Positions 20,541 to 52,500 of a stretch of 64,000 nucleotides of DNA are shown in pieces. Origin of the DNA: Trichoplax sp. H2 (taxonomy: Eukaryota). The stretch spans positions 1 to 64,000 of the forward strand of contig NOWV01000116.1 in the NCBI GenBank assembly GCA_003344405.1, given 5' to 3'. The translations under genes and the position numbers were made by a program. The notes under the pieces were generated by a model. The model ran no database searches and was not told the origin of the DNA. It was given only the letters and a program-made list of their open reading frames with translations. The number at the start of each line of letters is the position of its first letter. The first letter of the stretch is position 1.

Positions 20541-22799
20541 TTGACATGTTGACTAATTCCTTAAATTTGGGGATGGCAAAGGATGTCCATATAAAAAAAA
20601 AAATGGACAGATATATCGAAAATAATTGCTGTGTGCTGTAACTATTCTTAGTGCACATTCAGTGTACAGCAGTGTACGTACAGTCCACGACTGCTTCGTC
20701 ACAGTCCAAAATACTGCCATTCAAAATGCCCAATGGCGGTCCCATCGGACGGACAGATCCACGACATACTGCAGGACGATTAAAGGTATCTCTTTAAAGG
20801 TAGGGTTCAACTCCAACAAAAGAATTTTGGCCCAATCCATTATCCCCCACCTTGAATTAAATGGATTGATTTTTTCATACATTTACTTCATTTTGCCTTT
20901 CATTTCTTTCCACTTTAGCAGTAATGACAGCGGATTCCCATCGATTGTAACACCGTAATCGAATTCAATGCGATTGAAATCAAATCCTTGATTTTTCCTG
21001 CGATTGATCCAAATTGGCAATATTGATGTCGAGTTGGTGATCAGCGAAGGTCATCAACGCCTCAGGTATGGATTAATTATAAATACAATTCATCATCATC
21101 CAGACAGAAATGGCGATGCCGTAGTGAGAGGATAGTGTAGCTTCTTTCATCCTCTTAGTAAAGAATCATATTATAGATAAATTGTCTTATTTTCTCGTCT
21201 ACTTTGATGGCTTGTGTATAGTACAGGAAGTTGAATGTCTGGCTGTCAAGTAGGAGATTTTATCATCACCGTGTGTTAATGTGTGTGTGTGTCTTTTTCC
21301 ATTTCTATCCTTCCAGTAATCGTTATAACTTGATCTACTATAGCATACTATAGTGTGAATACTAGTCGTCATAAAAGTGGCGACATGAGAAATAGAGACT
21401 ACAGTGGGTAAGACTTTTTGCTTTGTTTATTTCAGGACTTGCTATCTAATGGTCATATTCCACTCATCGCGCAGTTAGAATGGATGACTGATGATCCTAC
21501 CGAGTTACTCAAGGTAAGGCATCCTGCTACAGTGGGATGACTGTTTTGTTTTCTAATAATGAATGATACTCGTAGTAACTGAACTGAACTACCATAGTCT
21601 TTCAATCTTGATGAACGTAGAAGAAAGCGAAATAGTGCTTACTCTTGAATTAAACACCGCCACTATACGTAGTTCCAATTGCAGATTTGGTCATCAATGG
21701 CAATACTAGACGTGTAGTGGTTCATTTGAGTGTAGCAATGGACATTAATCTATATATAGCAAAACCATCAGATAGATTCTTTCTCTTGAAATAAATAAAA
21801 CCCGTTACTACGCTAATTTCTAAGTACACTTGATAATGCAAATATTATGTTGGTAGTGATCAATTTGAACACACAATTCGACCTGAAACTATAACATAAT
21901 TAGGAAGTATTGTAGTTTATTTCTCTAGAAATAAACTTCCTCATTATATCAATTTCCAAGTGCAGCCTTGATAATGGAAATACTATTCGTGTCTTAGTCA
22001 ATTTGAGTACTGTACTATACATAATTCGATATTAAGATATCAAAAATGACTATCAAATCGATTATTTTCCTAGGAGTAAGCTCTGTCGTTATACTGAGTT
22101 CCAAGCATAGCCTTGATAATAAAAATGCTATACGCAAATTGGTTAATTTTTGTATACGATGATTCGATAGGAACGTATTCAAAGACTATCAAATAGATTA
22201 CTGTCGATTACATAACACAGAATAGACAAATCATGAATAGGAAAAGCTTCGAAATACACTACTATTACTACTGTCACTACTACTACTTCTCGTACAAACC
22301 CGTGTGGTAACTCCAAAGCTATAATATGATAAATAAAAGATGAAATCCTGTACCCTTGATCTATGGATTGCTAGCCTAATTCAAACATTTCAACATGGTA
22401 TTGCGATTAAAGAAATAAGAGTGATTTTATGCTAGTTCATTTAAATCAACATGATCATTAGTGATCATTAGATCATTACCATTCGATTATAATGTGCTCC
22501 ATGAGTAAAGCATCCCTTAATTGTATATCATACTTGAATAAGAAATAAAATGTCAATCAATGAATAAAGTTTGTACGCGTTATACCTAATTGTTAATTTG
22601 CAATAGGTTTGGTAGTACGAGTATATGAGTAGTGCAATACTACATTGCAATTGGTATAAATTCATATTGCAATTTTTTACACTAGAAATTGACAGCTCGC
22701 ACTTCTTCAACACTGCAGCAGCGTTCACTATAAACTGCCGTGTTTTCCTATCGGATATACCAATTCAAGAGTCATATCTTAAACTATATATTAAACAAT

Positions 22800-25287
22800 A
22801 TGGACAAGGAAGAACAACACTGGATTATTCGCAGCTCAACATCGTACAACGAATCTTTCGGAGTGTTTTCAAGCCTGCGCCAAAGTGGAGTTTTATGTGA
22901 TGTTATTATTGTGGTGGAAAATAGTAAAATACCTGCGCATCGATTAGTTTTAGCTTCTTACAGTCCATACTTTTATAGTATGTTTACCAGTAATATGATT
23001 GAAGCAACTCAACAAGAAATCACCATTGGCAATATTGATGCTACAGCCGCTGAAAAATTGATCGAATTTGCATACGGTGGCCAAATCTACTTACATAAAA
23101 ATAATGTACAATCACTATTCACAGCCTCTGATCTATTGCAAATTGATTTAGTTAAAGAAGCTTGTCGTAATTTTATCATCAAACAAATGGATGCCAGTAA
23201 TTGCTTAGGTATACGTGCCTTTGCTGATACATATTCATCTGAAGAATTAGTTTTATCTGCTAATCAATTTATCAATCGTAGCTTTGCTGAAGTATCTCAT
23301 AGCGACGAGTATTTATCACTATCGGTCAAACAAGTACAAGAATTATTATTGCGTGATCAATTAAACGTAGCCAGTGAAGAATTAATTTTCGAAGCATTAA
23401 TAGCATGGACACGCTATCGACTTGCTGAAAGGAAGCAGTACTTCAGTTATTTACTAAAGTTTGTACGACTACCACTACTGTCACCACAATATCTGGCGGA
23501 AAAAGTGGCTAATGTTGACCTTATTCGAAAAAATATTGAATGTCGTGATTTAGTAGATGAAGCCAAAGATGCTTACTTAATACCTAGTAAACGTTTATCA
23601 ATTGAATCATATAAAATCAAGCCTAGATGCTTTACGGAAGAGTTAGGTTATATGTATGCTGTGGGTGGGTTAGCAGCGAACGGCAATTCCGTCAATGCTG
23701 TCGAATATTACGATAATGTCCGTGACGAATGGTTTCCAGCACCATCACTACAGAGTATGAGAAGTAGGTTAGGAGTAACGGCTTTATGCAATTGCATTTA
23801 TGCTATTGGTGGTGTCGACGGCACTGAACGTTTAAGTACCGTTGAAAGATTAGATATCTCTCATCAACAAGCTTCATGGGAATATCAAACGTCAATGCGA
23901 GTGCATAGAAGTGCTTTAGGTGCTGTCAATATTCAAGGCAGTATTTATGCAGTTGGTGGCTATGATGGCACAGCATCATTGAATAGGTACTTAAATTATT
24001 TGAAAAATTTCTTGTAACGTCTATCGCTATGCAGTCGATCGTATCAAGACAGAACTTGAAATATCATTCTAGAAATGCAATCCTTGTTGTGATCATTACT
24101 ATTTCTTTGAACGCCTACGATAGCATATTAGTTGTAATCAATTGCAAAAGGATACTAAAGACAGTAGTATATAAGACCTGCTACGTAAAGAAAAAGAATA
24201 TATGCTATATTTATAGCAATGCTTAGAAATACTTTAATAATAAACAGTGGCGCCGTCTAGAGAATGCCATCGATGAATTTTAGATTATACCGCAGCAAAA
24301 AGTAGTTTAATTAGATTACTTATTGCTTTGTAATTATTTGAAGGTTATCATAATCAGATTAAAATTGAATGAAGCATTAGTCTGGCAAGAGAATGAGATC
24401 GACAGGAATTAAATAGCTTTTGTCTACAATTTTTTCATAAAGTTCATGTTACCGTAATTTAATTAACATGTTAATGTGATTCTTGAACCGTAGATTGGTC
24501 GTTAAATTTAATTAACATTGCTACTGAATTAGACAGTAAATGAGTACGCAAAGCATTCATTTAGTCATCACCTAATATATCTTTCTGTTGTTATCGTCTT
24601 CAATCAAACTAGTGTTGAGCGATACGAATTTGGTAAAGATACGTGGAATTACGTTGCTCCAATGACAACATGTAGAAGCGCTGCAGGAGTAGCTTCTTTA
24701 GGAGGTCGAATTTATGCTCTTGGTGGCCATGACGGATTATCAATATTTAATACGGTCGAATTTTTTGATTTACGGGAAGCTTATTGGCGTCATATGGTGC
24801 CAATGGCCACTAAAAGGTTGAAACTACGTAGACAGCACTGCCCATTAATTTTAGCCAAATCATACCAAAATTCCTTGCATTAAAACTGTGAAAGTATACT
24901 AGTAGTTAAAAGATAAGATCTAGCAGTATCTTTAACTTAAGGGATGTATTTTTCTATTTTCATAGGTGCAGACATGGCGTCGCTACTCTAGAAAATAAGA
25001 TATACGTTTGCGGAGGTTATGACGGTAGATCTTTTCTAAACACCGTGGAGTGCTTTGATCCTATCGCTGACAAATGGACTTTTGTAGCTCCTATGTCAAT
25101 AAGAAGAAGCAGAGTAGCTATGGTAGCATTAGGTGGCGTACTATTTGTTGTTGGAGGATATAATGGATTTTGCAACTTAAGAAGCGTGGAATGTTATGAT
25201 CCTAAGACCAATAAGTGGTCATATGTTAGTGATATGTCACAGCATGAAGGTGGCGTTGGAATTGTAGCTACTCCTCGTTTTCATTAG
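22800..25287 (+). CDS. KLHL18: Kelch-like protein 18 (BTB-BACK-6xKelch Cul3 adaptor)
   Basis: Exons 22800-23986, 24613-24816, 24966-25287. [33 protein letters not shown] domain, [10 protein letters not shown]. Kelch repeats include [23 protein letters not shown] and terminal [10 protein letters not shown], as in KLHL18. The start is placed at the first ATG (MDKEEQ). Confidence 0.9.
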
Positions 25288-27138: not shown

Positions 27139-30100
27139 CTAACTACTGTTACCAAAAATGCTTAAAAGGAAGATAAATATATATATAATGTCAGTATATA
27201 AAGTCAGAGCTCCGAAAATGTATTCCTCTGGATCGAGTTCGTAACGTCTACCACCCATAATGAGTTGTGTATCATAGGCAAGGAACTATTACGAAGCAAA
27301 TTGATCTCATTATTAATTGTTCTAACTTTATAATCTTTAAGTTTTTGCAACTGTAAACATTATCCGAACTTACAAGAGTAAATATCAACGCTCCAAGGCT
27401 TGCGTAGATTAAATAAACAACCTAGTAGTAAAGGAGCATTAAGATATGTATCCTTTCTATAGTATGAACTAATGGAAAGGTACAGACTATATATATACTT
27501 ACTCGGCTCCACATAAATATCATAAAGAAGCCAAATGTAAACAAAACCATACACAGGCAGAACAACAATCCATTCATCAACGTTAGATCCAGCTGTTAAA
27601 AAAAATCTACGGTTAGCTATGATTTCGAACTTTAGTGAAGTACGATACCAGAAATTTTAAAGCAGCTAAAAGAACCTTTGTCTGACAAGAGAATAATGTT
27701 ACTCCCAAAGTGACGATCTAATAAAACAAAGAAATTAGCGGTCAGTTGTTAAGGCTGAATACTTCGTCTAGTAACTTTGTTTAAAGAATACAATGTTTTA
27801 ACTTATAGGGCCCCTAAAGAAGACACATAGTTCTCTAAACAGTCAATAGAATGCATACGATAAAGGTATTTACTTTTGTAGTATGGTAAACGAAGGTGTA
27901 AAGTCGTTACATATCAAATTTATCCAACAGGTTTTGAAGAAGTTACTTAATCATAGTGAATTAATACTTACGCCAGTAATTCCCAAGGCGATTAGTACTG
28001 TATCAATGGAATAACGGCTACCGGTTTGAGTGGCAGATAATTTTCATATTGTTAATTAATTTTACATACAAAAATGAAATATAAGAATTAGTACAAGCTT
28101 ATCCCTTTTATTATGACCTATAGAACTTGGTGCAATCTATACAGCATTGCAGCCGATCAAAGAGAATTGTAGGTTATATTGTATCTGAGGCATTAGTCTA
28201 ACAATATTTACCAGCTGATAACTCCAACCAAATATGATAACGCCAACGTCTACATATAAAACGTAACATTAATAAGCCAATCGCACACACGAATCTTGTT
28301 TGACTTATCTTAAAATTATCTGTAAAAGTATCTGTATTTATGAATTACTTGAAGAGTCCTTTAATCTAAGTAAGCAATGATTCACACTTACAAAAATACT
28401 CAACGTAATATAATTATACGGAACTTTTCGTCTATATTCAAAATAAGGCGGATAAAATCACTTAGTATAAGGATTTAATGATAGTTAAACCAGTTACTGT
28501 TATGAGAGCATCAGGTGTATAGCTAATTCTAATTTTAGTGAATGGTATAAACTCATCTAACTGGTAATTGTATGCCATAGATACGGTTGATTATATATAT
28601 GCATAATTATTGACACATAAGCAAAGTTAGTAAATTACACGTTAGAAATAAACATATCGCGGATTCATAGTCGCTTACCTTAAAGAAGGAACACATGTCA
28701 TGGCCAAGAACGCAATCAGGAAAATAACTCTGATGGTCAATCATAGAACATTTGGCTATCAGAACGTGTTGATTATTCAAGTATGATTATATTATTTACT
28801 AGTTTCAATATGTTCTCATCAATAATATTTATAGTTTAATACTTACAGGCACGAAATATACATAGGAAGACTGGCTCTAACAAATTCTTTGACGCCCGGT
28901 CTATTTTTTTAAATAGATGCAGTAAATTCGGTATAATATCAAAAAATTATAACAGCATCATTATATTAGAAATGACTGCAGTGTGCAGTTCGATGATTCA
29001 TGTTTGTATTAATTTGATATTCATCTATTGGTTACATTCGAACAGTTTGTATAGTAGCATTCCAATACAGTATAAGACTTTTGCGATAGATATAGGAAAT
29101 ATTGCAATCAACATTAAGACTTGAAATAACTTGCTGCTTGCATATATATGGCTATGAAAATTATCTAAGTCTTTTTAAACAAGGTGCCTACTTACACAAA
29201 AAGCATAATAGCGACTATGCCAATTGTGACCGCTAACTGGATAGTCAGTATCAAATAAACCTAGCGAAAGGTTACATAATTCATATTTCATTACGATTGC
29301 CACATCGATTTAACTATTATTAAATACATGATGATTGCATCACCTAGATCAACTTACCTTTCTAATGAAGGCTGGAGAAGATATCGGTTATGAAATAGAA
29401 AAAATAAAAATTGAGAAAGTGACTTATTTGTCGTATAAAGTTGAATTTTACACTTATTAATTAATCTTACATGGGCATTTCTTTAAGTCTATACTCAAGA
29501 TTGCACCAAGTATTAGCTTAAGTAACAAAACTAATCTACTGTTAGCAAGATATTTGAGTACAACACTCTTATTTCCTTCGACAAAATTGCAGACAGATAC
29601 AAGGCAATTGCTCGCATATTGTCTTTATTAATGGAATTAATCTGTCGTTTGCAAGATATTCGAGTACGACACCCTTATTTCTTGGACAAAGTTGCAGACA
29701 GATACATGGTCCTTACTTGGATATTGCCGATTTCATTGATGGCTAAAAATGCAGTCGATAAATGTAATGCATTTTACGTTAAAGTTTGGATGCCTTTAGA
29801 CTGTCGATTAAATGTATTAGTCGATAATGCCTGTTGGCTATTCTTGACTGCGTTGATCAGGAACTACGTATACATGTCTATCCATTACCGGCAATGAAAC
29901 CCATGATTGCTACTAAAAGTATTCCGTATAAATCCATTCTAATGTGATTCATTAACTGTCCTATTATTTTCCTATTTAGCAGATCGCAATAGCCTCCTAT
30001 CTATAGTAAACTATCTTGCTAGTTAATAATTGATTGATATTAATTAATTAAAATTCTTTTAGTAGGTTTTAGAAGGATAAGCATGTTACAACAGTACAGT

Positions 30101-31276
30101 ATTCATCATTACCATACAGGTAAAGTGAACAAATTTTAATGGAATGTAATTCAATACTGGTCAAACTCATTTTGCTTGTCTAGTAAGTTAGCTTTTAGAA
30201 ATGTCTATAAGGCGTCCATCCACATGTATTACTGTACTACTCCATGAAGATTATCCTTCTCTATATGTATAAATTCATAAACGTACGCTCGTATACATAG
30301 TTCTCTATAATTAACGCATACCTTGTGCATACTTTAAATAAAAATAAATTGATTTCCATCATTAAAATAGATATAGCGCACAGTCACGTCAGTACAAACA
30401 AACCGAAACTGAACTATCGATTAGGCATCTTTCTCAATGCATCTACTGTACTGTACTACTCCATTGATTAATTAACGCTTCCCCTATGTATACTGTAAAT
30501 TATAAATTGATTTCAATTAGTAAAATAGATACTCTCCAAGTACGGTGAGTCTGTTACGCCAACAAAGTGAAACTATTTGTGCTCGATATCGATACTAGCA
30601 TCCACAGAATATGGAAGAGTACTGTAGAAGAGTAGATTTATTCTAATGAGTGCTATAGTAATTGAAGAGAGAGAAATGCAGTGTTTGTCGACCTTGTTTT
30701 CACCTAAGTAGTTCTTGACATGGAAACATTGTATATGTAGCAACTTTTGTTGTCTTGATATTACACGTTATTTAGCATTGAAAGGCATTCTACTCGACTG
30801 GATTTTTTTTTAGTGTGTATCGACACTATTTACACTTTAGGATAGCACTATGTACGGTGTAAAACATCTAGTCGAGTAAAATGATAGGCAATATCGTATT
30901 ACAAGATATCATCAGCATAAGATAGATTAATCAGGTCTAGCTAGAAGGAGAACAGTGTTGAAAACAAAGATCAAAGTACGTGCATTGTAGTCAATGGGCA
31001 CGAAAACTGACCACGACGGATAGATTTCTGGCTAAAATTTTCAGCGTAGTAGGAGTCAGCAGTATATAACGGAGGTAATGCTGAAGCTCTTTGATAACTT
31101 GGTGGAGGCTCTGTTGGCATATTTGAAGTTGGTTGTCCGCTATAATATTGTTGCTGTTGTGGTGGAGGAACTGGAGGATATTGACTCTGACTTTGGTATC
31201 CCTCCATGGCTGGAGGGGCACTAGCAGATGATCCACCAGGTGCAGGTGTAGGATAACCGCTTTTCTCCGCCGACAT
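27139..31276 (-). CDS. Protein lifeguard / TMBIM (Bax inhibitor-1 family; GRINA/FAIM2-like), ~12 small exons
   Basis: Pro-rich N-terminus with PPSY/PPLY motifs, then [119 protein letters not shown]. Stop at 27139-27141. Confidence 0.92.
30786..30883. repeat. Short inverted repeat (possible tiny MITE) in Lifeguard intron 1
   Basis: CATTCTACTCGACTGGAT and ATCTAGTCGAGTAAAATG form 18-bp imperfect inverted arms around a ~60-bp spacer. No clear TSD. Confidence 0.4.
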
Positions 31277-31914
31277 GATCCACCAATGCAAGACGACAGT
31301 TAATAATAATTGTATTCAAATTGGATACCAACGATCAATTCCAAGGCTGTCAATGATCAGTCCAACTGATGAAGTTTGGAAACAACTTGGAAGCAAGATT
31401 TCGATCAGTAATAACGATCCAACTCTCTTAAAGACCCAATCCAACGGAAAAAGTTGACAGAATCACCCCACTGGGAAGCAAAAGATGAAGATTTCGATCA
31501 GCAATAGCAATCGAGACTGTCGACAGACAGTCCAGACGACGGTAGCTATGGCGACATGAATAGTACGATGGCTTCTCTAGGAGGTCTGCTACCCAAACTA
31601 TCATTAAGATAACACTGCTCACTATAGAAGCCAACAATGAACATCGATATTGTTATGCCTCGAAAGCGGTACAGTACCGGTAGTATAGCAGTCTTGTGTA
31701 CAATGCGCCCTGTAGTGTATAGGGTCTTTACTAGAAGTCAAGAAAAAACAAAAATTCTACCTAGGGTATTAGGGTATCATGTTACCCTGCTCCCAAAGAA
31801 TGACGTCACCTTAGTTAGCGAAGCCCGTCCCCAAAATCAAAAATGGCAGAATGAAAACGAATTAATAAATCATGAATACTAGGATTGCTTTATCTCTCTG
31901 CTTAATTCAGTAAT

Positions 31915-32930
31915 CAAACAGCTTAAGATTTCTATTGGAGCTACTCTTTTTTCCCTAGATGATGCTCGGCATGGCTGACTGGTGTTGTCGACTGTCGGGG
32001 ATATGGAGCATTTCAACTTGATGAATTCATAAATGCTAAATTAAATAAATTAAATTAAATAATAAAGCAACCTAAAGTTTCTATTAGAGCTACTCTTTTT
32101 GGCCTAAATGATTGTTGGCATGGCTGACTGGTGTTGTTGACTATCGGGGACATGGAGCATTTCAACTTGATGAATTCATTAATACTAGAATAATTTAAAT
32201 TAAATAATAAAGCAACCTAAAATTTCTATTGGAGCTACTCTTTTTGGCCTAAATGATTGTTGGCATGGCTGACTGGTGTTGTCGACTATCGGGGACATGG
32301 AGCATTTCAACTTGATGAATTCATTAATACTAGAATAATTTAAATTAAATAATAAAGCTACCTAAAGTTTCTATTGGAGCTACTCTTTGTGGCCTAGATG
32401 ATATTCGGCATGGCTGACTGGTGTTGTCGACTATCGGGGACATGGAGCATTTCAACTTGATGAATTCATTAATGCTTAATTAAATATATATTAAATTAAA
32501 TAATAAAGCAACCTAAAGTTTCTATTGGAGCTACTCTTTTTGCCCTAAATGATTGTTGGCATGGCTGACTGGTATTGTCGACTGTCGGGGACATGGAGCA
32601 TTTCAACTTAATGAATTCATTAATACTAGAATCGCTTGATGTTTCTGCTTAATTAAATAAATTAAATTAAATAATAAAGCAAGCTAAAGTTTCTATTAGA
32701 GCTACTCTTTTTGGCCTAAATGAATGGTAGCATGGCTGACTGGTATTGTCGACTGTCGGGGACATGGAGTGTTTCAACTTAATCAATTTATTAGTACTAG
32801 GATCACTTGATGTTTCTGCTTAATTCAATAATCAAGTAAACTAAGGTTTCTATTGGAGCTACTCCTTTTGGCCTAAATGATTGTTGGCATGACTGACTGG
32901 TGTTGTTGACTGTTGGGGATATGCAACGTT
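31915..32930. repeat. Tandem satellite, 7 units of 145-171 bp
   Basis: Anchor TTCTATT(G/A)GAGCTACTC at 31930, 32079, 32224, 32369, 32520, 32691 and 32848. Each unit has a conserved ~105-bp core and a variable AT-rich linker. Confidence 0.95.
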
Positions 32931-33289
32931 TAGACGCTGTAGCAGAATACAAACTATCAACGATCACCGAATTATTTTGTTGCTAGATCAAATCATAGCA
33001 TTCACTCATCGAAAATCGATCTGATGTTATAGTTTACATCAGATACAAAAGGTGTATTATATGGCGATAGAGTATGTCTGAAGAAAGACAACTTCAGTGA
33101 TGTTGTCATTTTTTACTTCTATCTAACAGTCAATCGGAAATGCAATGGTAGGATTACAACACCATCAGGGGAGTAATCTATAACTGTATCATGGACAGAA
33201 ATAATATAAAGTAGAGCGTGCAATAAAAGATCAAGTAAATATTGACACGCTCCTCACGCTTTAGATAGTCGCCAGTTAAAGAAATAACT

Positions 33290-34070
33290 ATCTATAGGAA
33301 ATAATTCAATCCTATCATGCAAATCTGCAAGGTGATGAATAACTGATTATACTAACAAAGACAGTATAAATTCAAGAAATTTCGATCTACAGGAAAAAAG
33401 TTCCATCCTAGAAGGGGATTAACAGTTGATTACTAATAGAACCTGTATTAATTCGAGAAACTACTGGCGGCAGGAATAAACACAATCATACAAGGGGATT
33501 ATTGACTGATTACAAATAAAACTACTATAAATTCAAGAAGTAACAGTCTACAGGATGAAGCTCAATCCAATCACAAAGGCGATTAATGACTAGTTACTAA
33601 TAAAATCAGTACAATTCAAAGAAATAGCAGCCTACAGGATAAAGCTTAATCCTATCACAAAGACGATTAACGACTTGTTACTAATAAAATCAGTATCAAT
33701 TCAAGAAATGATTCTCTAAAAGGATAAAGCACAACTCCATCATGCAATCCTAAAAGATGCTTATAAACTGATTACGAATACATTCAGCATCAATTCAAGA
33801 AATAACTGTCTGAAAGAACAAAGCGCAATCCTATCATGCAATCCTAAAAGGTGATTAACAACTGATTAAGAATATAATCAGCATCCATTCAAGAAATAAC
33901 TGCCAAAGGGAAAGCTCAATCTAATCATACAATCCTAATAGGTGATGAATAAGCGATTCATTATAAATAAAATCAGTATAAACTCCAGAGATAATTGACG
34001 AAAGGGGAAGACCACAATCCTAGAATACGAGCTAAATAGATGATGAGCAGCTGATGACAAATAAAACCTA
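33290..34070. repeat. Degenerate tandem array, ~60-75 bp units, immediately upstream of murA
   Basis: About 11 diverged units resembling AATAAAATCAGTAT(A/C)AATTCAAGAAAT..CTACAGGATAAAGCTCAATCCTATCA..GATTAA..CTGATTACT. Confidence 0.85.
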
Positions 34071-34333
34071 CAGTCTATTAATTATAATATAATTGAATTG
34101 TATATTGTTATAAACTGTTAGAACTACCACTTTCAGCGAAGGGTGTGGCTTGTAAGCAATGATTCCGACATTTTCCTTCTGAGTTAAAGGAACTTGTGAG
34201 ACAAATACTTGTCTTTAGGGGTTTATGGGGGTTTCCCTTGGAAACCATTGATGACATACGAGACAGTCAGCCGCTGTACCAATATTGACTATCTTGGGCC
34301 CTGTAACTTACAAGGCAACACTTAGACGTCGTT

Positions 34334-35608
34334 ATGGAGAGAATTTTAATTCAGGGTGGAAACCATCTTTTTGGAGAAATAGCAATAAGTGGCTCAAAGA
34401 ATAGTTCGTTACCTTTAATGGCCGCTAGCCTTTTATCGAATCAAACTTTACAACTTACCAATATTCCTAAGCTATCTGACATAACAACAATGAAGAACTT
34501 GTTAGTGAATCTTGGGACAGTGATAGAAATCGTCGACCAAGAAGATAACGGATTACAGCTAAAATTATCCTCTGCTGACATTCAAAACTATTTTGTACCC
34601 TATGAGATTGAAAGTAAAATAAGAGCATCTATTTGGCTTCTTGGACCATTATTGACTAGGTTTGGTAAAGCAACAGTATCATTTCCAGGAGGTTGTGAGA
34701 TTGGTGCTAGACCAATCGATTTACATATAGCCGTTATGCAAGCGTTAGGAGCAAAAATAATAATGCACCACGATTGTATTGATGCTCATGTAGATGAATG
34801 TTTAGTAGGGTGCAATTTTTCTTTTACCAAAGTATCCGTTGGAGCAACTATAAATGCAATTTTAGCTGCAGTTTTAGCAAAGGGTGAGACCAATTTGTTT
34901 CACTGTGCAAGAGAACCAGAGATAGCTGATTTATGCCGTTGTTTAAATCAAATGGGAGCAGAGATCAAGGGTATTGGTACGACAGAATTGACAATTATTG
35001 GAAAAGATAGGCTCGATGGTACTAGCTATAAGGTAATGCCAGATAGGATAGAAGCAGGAACTTACATGATAGCGGCAGCAGTAACTAGAGGAGATGTCAA
35101 GTTACTGGGCATTGAATGTGACTTAATTGAAAATTTAGTAATGAGAATGAAAGCCGCTGGTGTAAGCATTCTACAGGGTAAGAACTTTATACGAGTGAAA
35201 CATCAAGGTCCTTTAAAGCCTGTTAATATTTCAACACAGCCTCATCCTGGTTTCCCGACTGATTTACAAGCTCAATTCATGTGCTTGATGACCTTGGCGG
35301 AAGGATTATCAACTATTTCGGAGACTATTTTTGAAAATCGGTTTATGCATGTTCGTGAGTTGTGTAAAATGGGAGCTAACATAACTATTGATGGCCATGA
35401 TGCGGTTGTACAAGGAGTCCAATCTCTAGTAGGGGCTGAAGTTATGGCAAGTGATTTAAGAGCTTCGGCAGGTTTAGTGATTGCAGGACTTTGTGCCAGA
35501 GGTGAAACAACCATTAGAGGGGTGCATCACTTAGATAGGGGATATCAGTCGCTTGAAAAGAAATTATCACAGTGTGGGGCTAAAATTTCGAGAATCACGG
35601 GCGATTAA
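34334..35608 (+). CDS. murA: UDP-N-acetylglucosamine 1-carboxyvinyltransferase (bacterial type, intronless)
   Basis: 424-aa uninterrupted ORF with MurA motifs ISGSKNS (K22), RASIWLLGPLL, PGGCEIGARPIDLH (C121, equivalent to E. coli C115), KVSVGAT, AREPEI, PDRIEAGT, PGFPTDLQAQ, ETIFENRFMH, SDLRAS and HLDRGY. Confidence 0.97.
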   Translation: MERILIQGGNHLFGEIAISGSKNSSLPLMAASLLSNQTLQLTNIPKLSDITTMKNLLVNLGTVIEIVDQEDNGLQLKLSSADIQNYFVPYEIESKIRASIWLLGPLLTRFGKATVSFPGGCEIGARPIDLHIAVMQALGAKIIMHHDCIDAHVDECLVGCNFSFTKVSVGATINAILAAVLAKGETNLFHCAREPEIADLCRCLNQMGAEIKGIGTTELTIIGKDRLDGTSYKVMPDRIEAGTYMIAAAVTRGDVKLLGIECDLIENLVMRMKAAGVSILQGKNFIRVKHQGPLKPVNISTQPHPGFPTDLQAQFMCLMTLAEGLSTISETIFENRFMHVRELCKMGANITIDGHDAVVQGVQSLVGAEVMASDLRASAGLVIAGLCARGETTIRGVHHLDRGYQSLEKKLSQCGAKISRITGD

Positions 35609-36077
35609 GTATCACTTTCATCAATAAGAGATTCAAAATACAAAGATTTTAATCGTATTTGATGGAAGACAGCGAAACCAATAACTCTACAATTGGCTTG
35701 AATGGAGAATTAAAAGTACAGCACAGATGCAGAAATAATTTATATTCTGCGGTATACAACCGAAGAGAGTGTCAAAGGTGAATACGTCATATAGTAATCC
35801 TGACGTAGCATTAAAACTGAAGTAAAATTATTTATTACCCGTAATACTTAATTTTTAATACCTTTCTAAAATTTTTCAAGAAGGTATGAATAAGTTTTAT
35901 TAATTTCTGTAGCAACCAAGTAGAAACCATATTGCAGTATCACAGAAACTAGAAATTATTAGTGCCAATTTAGTTCTTCTCGCTTTATGTGGTCTATTCA
36001 TCAATATCCATCACTGGTTGGATAATTCAGATTTGAATGCTGTGCCTAAATAAGTTCGTGAGCAAAATCATAATGTA

Positions 36078-39000
36078 TACAGCTTAAACCAATAGACGGT
36101 AAAATATCTAATAGACTGAAATTTAAATGTTGCCTGAGTTAAGCCTATCTGTAATGTAATTATTGAGGTGACAACCGTAAATCTAAGAAAAGCTCTTCAA
36201 TTCCTTCAAATTAGACAATATAAATATTAGCTCATGCTATCTATCGTAGTATCTTTGCAAAGAGTCATCTTGTACGGAAATAAATCAATTTACTTATAAC
36301 AACTGCAATAAACTTTTGAAAAGGTTCCAAACTTGTACGCCTATCGCTAATTTCGATCATGATCTGAAAGTGTACTTGTGTGAAACAATTTATTATGAGT
36401 GTTGTTGTCGTCTCTTATACGTATTAGCTAGAATATTGTTTACTGCAACAGGTTTATTGAATTACTATGTAACTAATAACAAACTACTTTCAATGAATTA
36501 CTATAAAAATTAGAGTATAAGCATAATAGGTGATTCCTATGTCTTTCTATTAGATATTGTAACAAATAGATATTGAAACCAACTATCGAAACGTCTATAG
36601 GTAATTTGTGAAAATCTACGTGCCTGAGGTACCGGTATATAAATAAAATATCAATTAGTAAAGTAGAACATAACTGGATCAAAGTCTTAATTAAATAGCA
36701 AGGAGAGTTCATTTCCTGAATAAGAATTGTCGATATCTTATAAACAAACTTCGCAAGTCTAGCTGTAGTAAAGAGTAGAAAAACATGCAGACTGTCTATA
36801 AATGTAGTCTACAAATATTTTTATTGAAGCGTACTTGTGTAATGAACATACATATTTTAATTTAGGTTACCTGTATCGTTTTAAATTTCAAATTTATCGA
36901 CCAACTCGAGTCATTTAAATGGGATCAATTGCATAATATATGGGCATGCTGGAATAAATGATTAATGTCATAGTAGATTTCACTTTACTTTGTGATTAAT
37001 TTTACTACACCAAGTTCTAATACTCGTGCACTATGGAAATAGTTATTAAAAGATTACTTAATCTCTAGTAATATTACACTATCGTTAGACACTGTAAAAA
37101 TAGGAAGTTCTTTTATTGTACAATATCCCTAAATGCATATATCATTGGTGTATAGAGTAGAAATATCAAAGCAAAATCTAGTTGGTATTGCTAGGCTTAC
37201 CTGTCTGTGACTAATTTCGGTTATAAAAGCGTAAATTAAATTTAGACAACGGATGCCCTATTTTATGATAACTTGCCACTATAATAGGTTAGTAAATACT
37301 ATCTTTTCTACAAGTATGTTATTACAGCGACTAATGACGATGATTCCTGCAATCATTCATACTGAAGCTGAAATTGCTTTAGCAATGCTTGCTTCTGCTT
37401 GGCTACTTGACAGCATTCGTAATTTTGCATACACGAGCTACTTAAAAAGTCGAATTCTTCTAGAATAGATTTTTGACAACGCTCAAATATCATGATGACT
37501 TTATTTTATTAGTATAATCTTACACCCTAAAACAAATATAAGAAGAATAGAGTATAACATAGATGATACAAACATAACTATTTAAGTATTAAGATTACTA
37601 TACTACGTACTTATATAGCTTACAATAACGACAAGAAATAAAAATAATTCCCTATCAACTAATGATAAACAACATATAAATCTACGTAGTAAGATGTTAA
37701 TCTATATTAACATAAGAAAGCGTCTTAATGGTTTGTGGTATTCTCGGTTGTATGCTTGTATTATCTTACAGCCATACATATTGTCTGAGAAATAGGTTGA
37801 AATTCGATTCCTCGCTTAAAAAATATTTTATAACCTCGTCTATATTGAGTAATGTTAAGAATTAAGATCTTATCGATTGTTTCTTTATCGATCTCTAAAA
37901 TTTTGGAACTTTTTAAGGATAGATATGAAACTAAATAGACGATTGAGGCATGGGTAATACTCGAATTAAGCGATGAAAATGTATGAAATCTATAAACGAG
38001 ATCGAACGTAACAATATAATGTACGAATAGACCTGTTATGATAAAAATGTAAAATGCTACTTGTAGCTGACTAATTGATATCTTAGGTGTGTAATACTTG
38101 AGATAGTTGTATAATTCTGCAGGAATACCAGTGCATGGATGAGTTCTACTTTCATATATATCGTAGTAGGTTTGACATAGTTTAGCTTGGAAATAATGAG
38201 AACCGTTGTTGCCTAAGTGAGCTTGGATTTTCTCTTTGAGTATGTTATGTCCGTCGTTAAAAGTACATTTTACACAACCGAAGCCACATTGCAATAATTT
38301 GACTGCAACTTTATTACTGTCTGACTCAATATATGAGTATTGAAAAACGATGCTCGAAATACCATTAATTGCATGATGGTGGTCGTCTCTTAGACTTCGT
38401 TTAATGTAATCCACAATACTAAGTTTGATAGTTTCTTCATTTAACATTTCTGGGGTATCAATTTCTACGTCATTGATACTGCCAGTTTGAGTGATGATAA
38501 AATCGACTCGCAAAATACCTTGCTTACTATCCAAGATTGTTTGAATATTTTCTTCTATTCTTGGCTTTACATCAATAATTCTTTGACATATAAGAGGACC
38601 TCGATCAGAGTAAGCGCTCAATAACAAATAGATAAAATGCACGTATGGAATTACAATAATAATAATTTCATTGAAATAGCTAGAAAATGCGAAAATAAAT
38701 GTTATAACAGTAATAGCGATTCTAGAAATCAATTGTAAACCGCAAGCTAATAGGGATGCAGTAAAAAAGACAAAAAAGAGTGAGTAGAACGTCATAAAGG
38801 CTAATACGAGAGGATGTATTAAAGGCCAATTTGTTATCTTGGGAAGTAAATTTCGTTTTAATTTGAATGTTAATACTTCAGAAATAAAAAGTAAAGCTCG
38901 TAAAAGTCCAATAAGTCCAAATATGCAAAATGGCAAGCAGATTATAAATGTTAAGAGATCTTTGATAAATTGAAATAGTTGTAGAGAAAGTAGATGATGT

Positions 39001-40759
39001 TTCATATCGACAAGAATGATGTTAATTTGGTGATAGGACTGTCGCTCATAACTTGGCGTTAAGTACATTTGTCTAGTTAGTAGCTCTTGATCATTGTCGT
39101 CAATTTGGTTATACGAATTATTTGAATCACTGGTCAATACCTGTTTCAAATGAGCTAAACTTAAAATCAATATGTATGGCCCGCAACATACTGCTATAAT
39201 AAATCCTATATCTTTAACGTCATGAAGTTTATCCATTTTATGAAATCGAGGTTTAAAAAAAAAATGCATTGAATTTCGTTGCAAAAGAAGAGAAAGAAAT
39301 CCCAATCCCGAAGATAGAATAACCAGTAATAAGAATATAATACAATGACTAATTTCTAGCCAATGGTAGTTAGTAGTATAGTCGGAAAAATGGAAATAGT
39401 TAACATTTTGAAAGTGTAACGTATCTAAGATACGAACCTTGACCATTTTCGTAAGATTTGTTGAATTTGGTAACATACTATCACTACGCTGGAGGTATGT
39501 TTCCCCGATTTGGTGAGACGATCCAGGCGATGATTGATAAGTTTCTTCTTGAATCAATCCTTGATGCGAATTATTAGTTTGTAGTAGGTTTAATGAATGA
39601 TCTTGACTCTCGTCAGAGGTAAGATGAGATTTATGTTCGCAATATCTATTGAAGGAAGATTTTATTCGGGTTATGTGCTACATATACTGTAATAACACTT
39701 TGGATCTGAACTAGGTATGGACTGTAACTGTAAAAAATTAACATTTCTATTTTGAGAAAACAAGTTTAGTTTGCGCTGGGTACTGAACATTGATGTAATT
39801 AGTTGGAATGCTTCTGAATAGATAAACAATAAATAATAGATTGCTTATAGACCGATAATACATAAAGTTCGTTACTGAATTTAAGGTTAACTTTCTACCG
39901 CTTTGTAAAATTTGTGACTTACCGATAATTACCTAATTCTTTCAAGAAGTTGTTAATAAGTTTATCTAACATAGTAACAGCTATAAGGGAACTGATTATT
40001 ATGGAAATTATTTGTACCATACGACCTGTCAATTTCTGTTTCCCTAGAATTAGGCATGTACTAATGTTAATTTTTGCAGCAACTATTTCTCTGTTACAGC
40101 ATGAATAAGGTATAGGATGATGTAAAAGTTCCTGTTTTCTATTAAAGCGTCGCCAAAATATTGTAGGACAATATCTACCAAAACAACCTCCACTTGAGTT
40201 TGTAAATTTTAATAATGCCTCAAAAATGATATACTTTCTTTTGGAATCACTTGTTAGTCGAGCATAGCAACCTCGGCTTGATTCAATAAGATTTAAACTC
40301 TGTCGATGTACGAAAACTGAATATAGACTTAAGCTTGTAGCAATATAATCGACCGGTAAAGAAATCAGAGCCCAACTAAAATCGTCTTTAACCCAGCCAT
40401 AGAAGTCATAATTTTTAGAATCGTTGTGTAGATTCTGACCATTTATTATCAGATTAAAATACACTATTTTAGTTTCTTTTGCTTCGATTTTTTGTCGAAA
40501 TAGGGCATAATGATGTGTATCATCATACACACTTAGAGAGCATTTGGAAGTGTTAAAAGACTTCTGTATCACTTGATCGGATGAATTTATAGACGCTGCT
40601 TGGATCAAGCAAACGACAAATACTACATAATGAAGAGATCGATTTCTAAACAAACCTAAAGTCATCGTCCTGTAAGATATAATTGAATAATATATTCACA
40701 TTACTTTAGTGTTCTGATATAATTACAATAAAGAATTATTACGTGTTAGAATTTTGTGT
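36078..40759. repeat. Arm A of a recent ~4.7-kb inverted segmental duplication (partner 49419-54454)
   Basis: The reverse complement is nearly identical to 49419-54454, including non-coding DNA. Homology ends sharply at 36078/54454 and 40759/49419. Confidence 0.95.
37442..40665 (-). CDS. Uncharacterised signal-peptide + Cys-rich ectodomain + multipass membrane protein, copy 1 (~875-878 aa)
   Basis: ORFs 39919-40665 and 37761-39557 join in phase via intron 39646-39922 (CG|GTAAGT..TCAATAG|A). A probable extra terminal exon lies at 37442-37459; without it the stop is at 37761. A probable non-coding 5' exon has its donor at 41165. Confidence 0.85.
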
Positions 40760-42434
40760 GCTTTTACTACAATATTAGCGATTACAAAATTAGCATTTCG
40801 TCGTATTTACTCTAAATGTCTACGCCTAAGTCTATTCGATCATTATAGGTATCTATTTATTCGCTAAATACAAGCCAGCTACAGTAAGAGATTTTAATGT
40901 CCCTAAAAATAAAATTAGAGGCAATCCGTAGAAGATAATGCGTAAGATTTGGAGAATGCAACATTATTAGCAAAGGTTACTCAGAATAACAGCTAGTGCA
41001 CACTTAATTATGCATTAAACTATCGAAAGATTTAACAATTGATATTGGAAATTATAAGTGAGTTACATATGGCACTAGAAATAACTACGTCGACGATTAA
41101 ATTGTTATATCAGAAACAGATTTTTCAAAAATCTAAGACATATATTAGATTTACTGTGAACTTACCTTCAATGTTACGATCAAGCTAACTTATAAAGGTC
41201 TTATTTCGCTCCTAGGACAATGATTTCTAAACTGTTTGAAATAACCAATTACGCAAGTTGAAATAGCAAAATGCCTAGAGATTTGATTATAAAACGCTGC
41301 AACACTTATTGATTGATAATGAAGTTTATTCTCTTATTGGGAAGTAATAATTTTGTACTAAAAATTGATGTTAAATTTTGAATAATTGACAATCTGAAAG
41401 AGAAGATTTACCAAATATTGTCGTTGTACACGTCACTTACGATCTGCAAATAAGCAATGTTTTCTCTATCTACTATTTCTTAAGTGATATCTATATCTAT
41501 CAACTGAAGTATTTAATTATTTATGCATAAAATAGTTTGTGATATCGTAATTTATGCAATGTTTGCATTTGTGTCATGCTGCGTCGAGAACGATAATAAC
41601 AACAGTAATAATTATTACAAAAATTGAGTAGCCGGTTTTACAGTGATATCGACGTTGGAATGAAGAAAACATCGACATTTTTTAATTTGATTCTATAGAG
41701 CTTTTACTAATAAACTATAGTTAACAATATCGATCTAATGTTACTGCTGCCTTGCTGCACTATAGAGAAGTAAACACGTAGGGTAAGTGATGGGGTAGCC
41801 TTCTCCTTCTGTAGTAGATCTCTTAAAATCTCGACTATGAAGCTATAACAATAGTAATCAACAAGAAACTGCAACTACTTTTTCAATCATACTCTCATTT
41901 CATAAGCTTCGTAGAGCTAACTACTGTTAGTGATCCTAAAATTTAAACAACATTATCAACCTACCTATCAGTTGTAATCATTTTGGCATTCTGTAGTGAT
42001 ACACCTCATATTTGATTATAATGATAGCTATATTCGATATAGTTAGGTTTCTAAGAATAGATATTATTGTGATGCTAATATTAGATGATTAATAACTACT
42101 ACATTAGAAATTGTCGATGACTAATGTAATGAAATGTAATATATAGAAATCAAGCTACAGAACTTTTAATAAATTTCGATTCAACCTTCGTGGCACTCTG
42201 GTCGACTAAACGAAACTTTGACACCCAATCAAATTGGGCAAACAACCGAACAACAATTTATTAAGTAAAATGTGAGACAGATAGACTAAACAACCTTCAA
42301 ATATTTGATTCTAAATATTATTGGTAAAGAGATCAAAAAACGACAGAACTGAAACTGTCAACAACAAAACAACCTAACAAAAAGAAGAACGTTTTCACTT
42401 ACAACAATTCTATCCAAAATAGTTGGTCAATTGT

Positions 42435-49512: not shown

Positions 49513-52500
49513 ATGACTTTAGGTTTGTTTAGAAATCGATCTCTTCATTATGTAGTATTTATCGTTTGCTTGATCCAAGCAGCGTCTATAAATTCATCCG
49601 ATCAAGTGATACAGAAGTCTTTTGACGCTTCCAAATGCTCTCTAAGGGTGTATGATGATACACGTCATTATGCCATATTTCGACAATATATCGAAGCAAA
49701 AGAAACTAAAATAGTGTTTTTTAATCTGACAATATTTGGTCAGAATCTACACAACGATTCTAAAAATTATGACTTCTATGGCTGGGTTAAAGACGATTTT
49801 AGTTGGGCTCTGATTTCTTTACCGGTCGATTATATTGCTACAAGCTTAAATCTTTATTCAGTTTTCGTACATCGACTGAGTTTAAATCTTATTGAATCAA
49901 GCCGAGGTTGCTATGCTCGACTAATAAGTGATTCCAAAAGAAAGTATATCATTTTTGAGGCATTATTAAAATTTACAAACTCAAGTGGAGGTTGTTTTGG
50001 TAGATATTGTCCTACAATATTTTGGCGACGCTTTAATAGAAAACAGGAACTTTTACATCATCATATATCTTATTCACATTGTAACAGAGAAATAGTTGCT
50101 CCAAAAATTAATATTAGTACATGCCTAATTCTAGGGAAACAGAAATTGACAGGTCGTATGGTACAAATAATTTCCATAATAATCAGTTCTCTTATAGCTG
50201 CTACTATGTTAGATAAACTTATTAACAACTTCTTGAAAGAATTAGGTAATTATCGGTAAGTCACAAATTTTACAAAGCGGTAGAAAGTTAACCTTAAATT
50301 CAGTAACGAACTTTATGTATTATCGGTCTATAAGCAATCTATTATTTATTGTTTATCTATTCAGAAGCATTCCAACTAATTACATCAATGTTCAGTACCC
50401 AGCGCAAACTAAACTTGTTTTCTCAAAATAGAAATGTTAATTTTTTACAGTTACAGTCCATACAATGCAATACAGTGCTGTATCTATGACAATGCTAGTT
50501 CAGATCCAAAGTGTTATTACAGTATATGTAGCACATAACCCGAATAAAATCTTCCTTCAATAGATATTGCGAACATAAATCTCATCTTACCTCTGACGAG
50601 AGTCAAGATCATTCATTAAACCTACTACAAACTAATAATTCGCATCAAGAATTGATTCAAGAAGAAACTTATCAATCATCGCCTGGATCGTCTCACCAAA
50701 TCGGGGGAACATGCTTCCAGCGCAGTGATAGTATGTTACCAAATTCAACAAATCTTACGAAAATGGTCAAGGTTCGTATCTTAGATACGTTACACTTTCA
50801 AAATGTTAACTATTTCCATTTTTCAACTATACTACTAACTACCATTGGCTAGAAATTAGTCATTGTATTATATTCTTATTACTGGTTATTCTATCTTCGG
50901 GATTGGGATTTCTTTCTCTTCTTTTGCAACGAAATTCAATGCATTTTGTTTTTAAACCTCGATTTCATAAAATGGATAAACTTCATGACGTTAAAGATAT
51001 AGGATTTATTATAGCAGTATGTTGCGGGCCATACATATTGATTTTAAGTTTAGCTCATTTGAAACAGGTATTGACCAGTGATTCAAACAATTCGTATAAC
51101 CAAATTGACGACAATGATCAAGAGCTACTAACTAGACAAATGTACTTAACGCCAAGTTATGAGCGACAGTCCTATCACCAAATTAACATCATTCTTGTCA
51201 ATATGAAACATCATCTACTTTCTCTACAACTATTTCAATTTATCAAAGATCTCTTAACATTTATAATCTGCTTGCCATTTTGCATATTTGGACTTATTGG
51301 ACTTTTACGAGCTTTACTTTTTATTTCTGAAGTATTAACATTCAAATTAAAACGAAATTTACTTCCCAAGATAACAAATTGGCCTTTAATACATCCTCTC
51401 GTATTAGCCTTTATGACGTTCTACTCACTCTTTTTTGTCTTTTTTACTGCATCCCTATTAGCTTGCGGTTTACAATTGATTTCTAGAATCGCTATTACTG
51501 TTATAACATTTATTTTCGCATTTTCTAGCTATTTCAATGAAATTATTATTATTGTAATTCCATACGTGCATTTTATCTATTTGTTATTGAGCGCTTACTC
51601 TGATCGAGGTCCTCTTATATGTCAAAGAATTATTGATGTAAAGCCAAGAATAGAAGAAAATATTCAAACAATCTTGGATAGTAAGCAAGGTATTTTGCGA
51701 GTCGATTTTATCATCACTCAAACTGGCAGTATCAATGACGTAGAAATTGATACCCCAGAAATGTTAAATGAAGAAACTATCAAACTTAGTATTGTGGATT
51801 ACATTAAACGAAGTCTAAGAGACGACCACCATCATGCAATTAATGGTATTTCGAGCATCGTTTTTCAATACTCATATATTGAGTCAGACAGTAATAAAGT
51901 TGCAGTCAAATTATTGCAATGTGGCTTCGGTTGTGTAAAATGTACTTTTAACGACGGACATAACATACTCAAAGAGAAAATCCAAGCTCACTTAGGCAAC
52001 AACGGTTCTCATTATTTCCAAGCTAAACTATGTCAAACCTACTACGATATATATGAAAGTAGAACTCATCCATGCACTGGTATTCCTGCAGAATTATACA
52101 ACTATCTCAAGTATTACACACCTAAGATATCAATTAGTCAGCTACAAGTAGCATTTTACATTTTTATCATAACAGGTCTATTCGTACATTATATTGTTAC
52201 GTTCGATCTCGTTTATAGATTTCATACATTTTCATCGCTTAATTCGAGTATTACCCATGCCTCAATCGTCTATTTAGTTTCATATCTATCCTTAAAAAGT
52301 TCCAAAATTTTAGAGATCGATAAAGAAACAATCGATAAGATCTTAATTCTTAACATTACTCAATATAGACGAGGTTATAAAATATTTTTTAAGCGAGGAA
52401 TCGAATTTCAACCTATTTCTCAGACAATATGTATGGCTGTAAGATAATACAAGCATACAACCGAGAATACCACAAACCATTAAGACGCTTTCTTATGTTA

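Follow-up and report, generated by a model that had tools for sequence, protein, structure and literature searches.

A rickettsial-type murA gene in the DNA of the placozoan Trichoplax sp. H2: integration, transcription, ancestry and constraint

We analysed a 64,000-nucleotide stretch of Trichoplax sp. H2 (contig NOWV01000116.1, positions 1 to 64,000, GenBank assembly GCA_003344405.1; hereafter the window), which carries an intact gene for the peptidoglycan enzyme MurA at 34334–35608. The gene is physically present in host DNA at host copy depth, between spliced animal genes, and it is transcribed. On balance, we favour the reading that it is a nuclear murA from a Megaira-like member of the Rickettsiaceae, integrated, intact and transcribed, that it probably encodes an active enzyme feeding or gating a symbiont's supply of wall precursor, and that its donor was probably not a resident of the animal.

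The transfer of murA to Trichoplax has been in print since 2013 and is therefore not a discovery of this work. Driscoll et al. (2013, Genome Biol Evol 5:621; PMC3641634) describe the same MurA as an intronless rickettsial lateral gene transfer on a large, eukaryote-like T. adhaerens scaffold, list it among 12 bacterial-like coding sequences on large scaffolds, pair it with DapF and compare it with cases in aphids and rotifers. They also raise the idea that expression in particular tissues may confine the symbiont to the fibre cells. Our analysis concerns the same gene and shares the idea that it limits or supports a fibre-cell symbiont; it differs in the donor, which that paper suggests to be the resident endosymbiont RETA and which we place among the crown Rickettsiaceae, not the Midichloriaceae. 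The initial annotation of the window had cautioned that novelty needed a literature check, and rightly so. A literature search by accessions of the murA gene returned no paper, and murA is not mentioned in the texts, supplements aside, of Kamm 2019, Gruber-Vodicka 2019, the Mankowski preprint and Klinges 2019. What is added here is transcription in public runs, host-like depth, placement within crown Rickettsiaceae and a quantified relaxation of constraint.

An intact and transcribed murA gene in host DNA

The coding sequence and the transcript features around it are the following.

34334–35608, + strand: murA coding sequence, a single open reading frame (ORF) with an ATG start, 424 codons plus stop and no intron
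34196–34333, + strand: probable 5′ leader of ~120–140 nt, its start approximated from low-depth RNA contigs (bin depths and the distance of the variant at 34362 from contig ends)
34109–34114, + strand: candidate TATAAA motif pointed out in the initial annotation, ~85–100 nt before the start of RNA cover
35609–36324, + strand: 3′ untranslated region, from RNA contigs, with AATAAA at 36279 and 36307; a second RNA contig reaches 36535

The murA protein matched the Pfam profile PF00275 (EPSP_synthase) with an E value of 2.5e-97, residues 7–411 aligning with positions 2–417 of 417. Its score against TIGR01072, the NCBIfam murA equivalog (EC 2.5.1.7), was 548.8 bits (cutoff 392.7; residues 1–420 on positions 1–416 of 416), and it did not reach the aroA model (58.5 against a required 287.25). 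The closest solved structure was the MurA 5bq2_A (E 2.3e-122, 412 bits), with query residues 1–423 aligned end to end; by sequence comparison, 33 chains of MurA or MurA-like structures had E values below 1e-30. The EPSP-synthase-type two-domain fold is thereby predicted to be covered from end to end. All 16 functional residues checked were kept: K22, N23, R97, W101, C121, R126, D129, H131, K166, S168, G170, D310, D374, L375 and R376 (the DLR motif) and R402. The key positions among them we take to correspond to K22, N23, R91, C115, R120, D305, D369 and R397 in E. coli numbering. The PGGC Cys-loop is present, with C121 as a catalytic Cys of the fosfomycin-target type.

The murA exon has no N-terminal or targeting extension: the ATG is preceded, at a distance of 10 codons, by an in-frame TAA, and the protein aligns with bacterial MurA from the first residue of each. 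The sequence directly 5′ of the ATG (ACTTAGACGTCGTT) contains no AGGAGG-like motif. The initial annotation had described a full-length, intronless MurA that retains its catalytic and substrate residues and has neither a targeting extension nor an evident Shine–Dalgarno sequence, and our results agree with it on each of these points.

The protein is identical to database protein P0121 and differs from the named T. adhaerens protein TRIADDRAFT_60547 (P0001) by the single substitution N10I. The initial annotation had supposed a placozoan host, correctly. At the underlying position, 34362, the window has A (Asn10), and T (Ile10) was found in all four runs compared (two DNA, two RNA) as well as in the named T. 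adhaerens protein. Asn10 is thus a non-synonymous variant that, among the data sets compared, is private to the assembly of the window.

The 5-kb stretch around murA was checked in 24 listed public runs and was present in 20 of them, from eight studies and under two organism labels. Contigs of two DNA runs with different organism labels (X1 and X4) and of two RNA runs (X19 and X20) were then placed on positions 29000–41000. In X1, a single contig of 2573 nt (record 3, 33505–36077) holds murA with flanks of 829 nt upstream and 469 nt downstream, at a depth of 32.5 as compared with 34.2 and 36.3 for neighbouring contigs. In X4, the murA contigs had depths of 21.3–22 and the flanks 22.9–24.7. No single Logan contig runs from murA into a neighbouring gene, because these contigs break at repeats; the window and the 1.63 Mb record that bears the named T. 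adhaerens copy do so. The copy encoding P0121 is on a record of 244 kb. None of the searches made returned a bacterial sequence closer than 77% to the murA protein.

We also compared positions 30000–40000 by tblastx with 12 bacterial murA loci and their flanks. Bacterial similarity ended at the borders of the ORF: 174 of the 176 matches were inside murA, and the remaining two were short (28 and 44 aa) and 32–46% identical. On this comparison, the transferred piece visible today is the murA gene alone, as the initial annotation had indicated in noting that no bacterial genes adjoin it. Its wider claim that murA is embedded in an animal chromosome is upheld by the independent contigs, the host-like depth and the spliced neighbours on both sides. 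A chimeric assembly is effectively excluded.

Runs X19 and X20 are random-primed metatranscriptomes of one study, and strand, cap, true ends and poly(A) are not readable from their contigs. Record 13 of X19 spans 34798–36019 and 36093–36324, record 19 of X20 spans 34736–36019, and record 20 of X20 spans 36146–36535. RNA depth was 0 over 36619–37420 and ~0 over 33812–34212, where the DNA runs stood at 21–57, and spliced contigs of the neighbouring host gene occur in these libraries too. The cover over murA therefore represents RNA and not carried-over DNA. Inside the ORF the RNA contig cover has gaps (~34426–34797 in X19 and 34389–34735 in X20), from which we draw no conclusion. Of the checks proposed in the initial annotation, the one on read depth thus has an answer: contigs of X1 and X4 that hold the flanks match the neighbouring host depth, so that a chimera is not supported. 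RNA contigs cover murA and its 3′ tail in both runs.

By arithmetic on bin depths and contig ends, RNA cover begins at approximately 34196–34213. Upstream ATGs at 34225 and 34251 open ORFs of 8 and 24 codons in the probable leader, a third at 34159 (7 codons) lies just 5′ of it, and the in-frame TAA, at 34304, falls within it. The spacing from the TATAAA motif to the RNA cover appears longer than a classical TATA box would suggest. The 3′ tail measures ~0.7–0.9 kb, with an AATAAA 12–17 nt before one RNA contig end (36324). As far as contigs reveal, the picture is that of an mRNA-like murA unit of ~2.1–2.3 kb whose leader is short and whose 3′ tail is long.

A skip of 73 nt in an RNA contig, from 36019 to 36093, was considered as an intron and rejected; its ends are GG..AA, it coincides with breaks in DNA contigs, and we read it as a polymorphic indel. 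Between 36019 and 36146, contigs from the DNA of both organisms are broken or omit 63 nt, which suggests that the 3′ untranslated region has an indel or repeat polymorphism here.

Ancestry of the gene and its donor

Among the matches listed, the relatives of the murA protein were metagenome-assembled genomes (MAGs) labelled Rickettsiaceae (70–57% identity), followed by Tisiphia and Rickettsia (57–59%). The 90% cluster of one relative, P0020 (65% identical to the murA protein), includes the MurA of 'Candidatus Megaera venefica'. In species-representative genomes, the seven best loci were 63–70% identical, six labelled 'Rickettsiaceae' and one 'Alphaproteobacteria'. Closer to Trichoplax murA, at ~77%, are three proteins of 426 aa encoded on contigs of 5.8–7.2 kb (P0002, P0122 and P0123; the 77% relatives). 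They were found neither among 400 sampled Rickettsiales genomes, where the best match was 79%, nor in the species-representative genomes scanned. MurA was present in 378 of the 400 genomes. The 36 best matches to P0002 (61–79%) all fell into one family, labelled Rickettsiaceae (the family of genome G001), in which MurA was matched in 127 of 130 genomes; the best matches outside it reached 59–60%.

A tree of 41 rows included 15 of the best Rickettsiales MurA matches from outside that family, chosen by score. In this tree, murA grouped with P0002 and P0123 (support 100/99). The group lay inside a clade of 18 rows (100/99) that also holds aquatic MAGs and the representative of the Megaera venefica cluster and that is separate from Rickettsia and Tisiphia. 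The split that separates all rows of the G001 family, murA, P0002 and P0123 from the 15 other Rickettsiales rows was supported at 100/100, with a stem of 0.60. A grouping of murA with the non-family rows, defined once the tree was known, was rejected by an approximately unbiased (AU) test (p = 0.00053). One of the non-family rows has the same sequence as the named MurA of Rickettsiales bacterium Ac37b, an organism described as a basal member of the Rickettsiaceae by Castelli et al. (2024, PMC10847448). Because Ac37b lies outside the family split, Trichoplax murA would sit deeper inside the Rickettsiaceae than a basal member. The initial annotation had called the gene a Rickettsia-like MurA that passed from a bacterium to an animal; the split and the AU test bear out a Rickettsiaceae origin.

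As a near-invariant set we took the 141 columns with at least 97% conservation across 119 bacterial rows; P0002 deviates at none of them and P0123 at one. The branches of the 77% relatives are 0.03–0.07 long after a stem of 0.045, as compared with 0.37 for Trichoplax murA. We take them to be bacterial because of this bacterial-like constraint and the short branches, in which case they would be the closest sampled bacteria to the donor; alternatively, they may be copies in other placozoans.

Described residents of Trichoplax belong to another family. RETA and Grellia, which live in Trichoplax H1 and H2, are assigned to the Midichloriaceae (PMC6784892), as is Aquarickettsia (PMC6863919). A preprint (bioRxiv 10.1101/2025.02.27.640636) likewise gives Midichloriaceae as the H1/H2 residents and reports Megaira in one H11 population only, together with a sporadic, low-abundance 'Rickettsiaceae-1'. 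In trees without a named Midichloriaceae MurA, the closest relatives of murA belong to the G001 family, which includes the Megaera venefica cluster and Tisiphia, and not to the resident symbiont's family. A search with the MurA of a non-family genome returned only 'Rickettsiales bacterium' labels and Ac37b, and no entry named Aquarickettsia, Grellia or Midichloria. From these placements we infer that the Trichoplax lineage acquired murA from Rickettsiaceae of the Megaira-like aquatic radiation. Since murA nests in the crown Rickettsiaceae while the described residents are Midichloriaceae, the donor was probably not today's resident lineage. Of the symbiont-to-host transfer put forward in the initial annotation, passage from Rickettsiaceae to host therefore stands, and the resident symbiont as its source probably does not.

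Among the 120 matches listed, the only other animal-labelled one was an insect record that groups with Tisiphia. This protein, P0087, is a Tisiphia-type MurA (59% identical to the murA protein) that a record of 192.8 Mb attributes to the fungus gnat Pseudolycoriella hygida. It groups with Rickettsia sp. and Tisiphia and deviates at none of the 141 near-invariant columns. It may represent a further rickettsial insertion into the chromosome of an animal, or carry-over from a symbiont.

Predicted role, constraint and alternative readings

The murA protein is predicted to be a cytosolic, Cys-type (fosfomycin-sensitive) UDP-N-acetylglucosamine (UDP-GlcNAc) enolpyruvyl transferase that is still active. 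It would make enolpyruvyl-UDP-GlcNAc from the UDP-GlcNAc and phosphoenolpyruvate (PEP) of the host. Driscoll et al. (2013, PMC3641634) list only MurA and DapF in envelope synthesis among the 12 bacterial-like genes on large scaffolds, and Kamm 2019, which adds lysA in H2, reports dapF and lysA of bacterial type in Trichoplax nuclear genomes. With only MurA, DapF and LysA reported as host-encoded, and with no reported MurB to MurF, the animal could therefore not finish the pathway, and only a bacterium would be able to use the product. The most likely role of murA would be to feed or gate peptidoglycan precursor for the Rickettsiales in the endoplasmic reticulum (ER) of the fibre cells, alongside the host-encoded DapF and LysA. 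Such a role in supplying or controlling the symbiont, predicted from sequence and context, is our best guess.

The murA protein differs from P0002 at 97 positions; 49 of these changes were polarised to the Trichoplax branch and 6 to that of P0002 and P0123, and 42 were ambiguous. By this count, Trichoplax murA evolves about eight times faster than its nearest relative.

A number of observations weigh against the role that we favour. The murA protein deviates at 8 of the 141 near-invariant columns (A88V, V93E, M96I, A122E, G147D, Y148C, N190H and R345K), where the bacterial rows have a median of 0 and a 95th percentile of 4, and 4 of 119 reach 8, two of them being distant outgroups. A122E adjoins the catalytic Cys, and G147D and Y148C are at otherwise invariant columns. 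Columns at least 90% conserved hold 21 of the 97 differences (21.6%); the median share in 242 bacterial pairs of 74–80% identity was 5.2%, two of the 242 reach the murA value, and the neutral expectation is 45%. Changes at conserved sites are thus about four times those of equally diverged bacterial pairs. Part of the long murA branch may predate the transfer, and the selection tests are therefore not clean. The protein has neither a signal peptide nor an extension, hence no obvious route into the ER lumen or into the bacterium. MurA is near-universal in Rickettsiales (the 378 of 400 genomes given above), and a capacity for peptidoglycan synthesis is ascribed to Aquarickettsia (PMC6863919), so that a host copy may be superfluous for the symbiont. 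The 5′ third of murA has RNA cover of low depth only (1.5–1.7 in the bin 34213–34613), and the evidence for transcription comes from contigs of two random-primed runs of one study. As to the donor, an earlier tree in which the outgroups were only two and very distant gave the pairing of murA with P0002 and P0123 weak support (71/39), and named Midichloriaceae MurA proteins are absent from the tree rows, so the argument rests on family membership and literature placements.

The main alternative is that murA is an expressed relic, that is, a real and integrated transfer, transcribed at a low level, which has no function and drifts towards decay and has not yet met a stop or frameshift. We regard this as possible, if on the unlikely side. 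The excess of changes on the Trichoplax branch and at conserved columns, the substitutions beside the catalytic Cys and at two invariant columns, and the lack of introns and of a targeting signal all fit such a relic, as does the non-synonymous nature of N10I, one of the two variants in the ORF among the data sets. We also simulated neutral evolution from a bacterial homologue by substitution only (400 runs each). The probability of meeting no stop was 0.107 at 38 amino-acid changes, which is not negligible, and 0.025 at 49. Because the simulation ignores indels, the true neutral probability of 424 codons without stop or frameshift is lower still. Further evidence against a relic comes from the distribution of the changes: strictly invariant columns were changed at 2 of 78, as against 12 of 50 in the class of 0.90–0.97 conservation (Fisher p = 2.3e-4), and the share at conserved columns is half that expected under neutrality. 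All 16 functional residues are kept, and the ends of the transcript are mRNA-like. On these counts, constraint on murA is clearly relaxed, with the invariant core still protected. The claim of the initial annotation that the gene is kept under selection is thus only partly supported: the invariant core and the catalytic residues are protected, but constraint is relaxed and drift is only moderately rejected by the simulation.

A variant of our reading, which we entertain tentatively, is that murA is a fossil of an earlier or transient Megaira-like partner, kept under relaxed but real selection to feed or throttle the wall of a different, later symbiont, namely Midichloriaceae in the ER of the fibre cells.

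It is improbable, in our estimate, that murA was recruited for a host purpose unrelated to the symbiont wall, such as another nucleotide sugar or regulation, with a shifted specificity. Fast evolution, the substitutions near the active-site loop (A122E, M96I and V93E) and at the invariant G147 and Y148, and the lack of an obvious route to a symbiont in the ER lumen would be in keeping with such a change. The enolpyruvyl transferase fold is also reused elsewhere, for example in NikO (distant match 4fqd_A, E 2.8e-32). All UDP-GlcNAc- and PEP-contacting residues checked are nevertheless unchanged, the score is far above the MurA equivalog cutoff, and nothing points to another substrate.

That misassembly or contamination has linked a bacterial gene to animal DNA is scarcely credible: rickettsial contigs are known in placozoan assemblies (Driscoll 2013, PMC3641634; Eitel 2018, in which 19 bacterial contigs were removed) and murA is intronless, with a base composition that fits both sources (G+C at third codon positions, GC3, 0.289; bacterial homologues 0.17–0.39, host ORFs 0.25–0.36), but independent contigs of DNA runs hold it along with flanks that are not bacterial, and their depth is that of the host contigs nearby, runs from eight studies contain the stretch, two independent assemblies place it on the 244 kb and 1.63 Mb records, no further bacterial similarity lies within 10 kb and no bacterial sequence more than 77% identical was found. 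Base composition itself is uninformative on the origin or age of murA because donor-like and host genes are equally AT-rich.

Genomic surroundings and related systems

The features on either side of murA are as follows.

27139–31504, − strand: upstream neighbour, a multi-exon Bax-inhibitor-1/TMBIM-like host gene (last exon PF01027 Bax1-I, 40.2 bits, cutoff 34.1; exon-like ORFs, RNA contigs, joint 29262->31012)
31924–32832, no strand: tandem array with a period of 145–171 nt (Tandem Repeats Finder)
33483–33946, no strand: tandem array with a period of 84–94 nt (Tandem Repeats Finder), in the non-coding host flank directly upstream of murA
37761–40665, − strand: downstream neighbour, a spliced gene of a four-copy local family (ORFs, intron in an RNA contig, paralogy), its start 2.15 kb from murA

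The 5′ RNA contig of the upstream gene ends at 31504, ~2.8 kb from murA, in accord with the intron-rich animal gene that the initial annotation had placed about 3 kb away. The first coding exon of this gene is rich in proline and tyrosine, and nowhere across 29000–41000 is RNA contig depth higher than in the 5′ part of the gene. The two tandem arrays occupy much of the spacer between it and murA, and Logan contigs break there. An RNA contig connects the two large ORFs of the downstream neighbour across a canonical intron, 39645->39923 (CT..AC on the + strand).

Four paralogous genes lie at 37761–61605, each with a small (~248 aa) and a large (514–619 aa) ORF joined by an intron; the family gave no Pfam match. 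The copies at 37761–40665 (−) and 49513–52447 (+) form an inverted, near-identical pair (99.6% and 92.7%), and the other copies are 50–71% alike. Further upstream of murA, 22740–24017 (+) is one open frame of 425 aa; it encodes BTB, BACK and Kelch domains and appears to be a Kelch-like gene poor in introns.

Placozoans rank with the simplest of animals, and one of their cell types harbours Rickettsiales in its ER. If our reading is true, an early animal would hold, in dapF, lysA and its own gene for the first step of peptidoglycan synthesis, a lever on the wall of its symbiont, a form of host control known so far mainly from insects and plastids. On the more tentative fossil variant, this would amount to a mosaic host–symbiont peptidoglycan pathway in a very early-branching animal, with a donor that is no longer resident. 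The Rickettsiaceae-like donor and a constraint that is relaxed and not absent sharpen this open question and make it testable.

Compared with bacterial MurA (5bq2, 1uae and 1ejc), the Trichoplax protein shares the two-domain fold, the PGGC Cys-loop, K22 and N23, the equivalent of R126, D310, the D374-L-R motif and R402. It differs in being encoded in an animal nucleus, in having no murB–G neighbours and in its changes at near-invariant columns.

Bacterial cell-wall genes are also found in the aphid nucleus, namely ldcA, rlpA and amiD (cited in Driscoll 2013, PMC3641634). Cases in sap-feeding insects resemble that of Trichoplax in that bacterial wall genes have been transferred, often from non-resident donors, are expressed and are thought to support or control the symbiont wall. 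Mealybugs reportedly have a mosaic peptidoglycan pathway with a host murF. The insect genes differ in having introns or signals, bacteriocyte-specific expression and, in the mealybug, biochemical proof, whereas Trichoplax has one early-pathway enzyme with no targeting signal, known from sequence.

Nuclear MurA-like genes of mosses and other plants act in plastid division, and there, as would be the case in Trichoplax, a MurA encoded by a eukaryote serves a compartment derived from bacteria. The plant proteins have transit peptides and cyanobacterial or chlamydial ancestry, whereas Trichoplax MurA has no extension and is of rickettsial ancestry.

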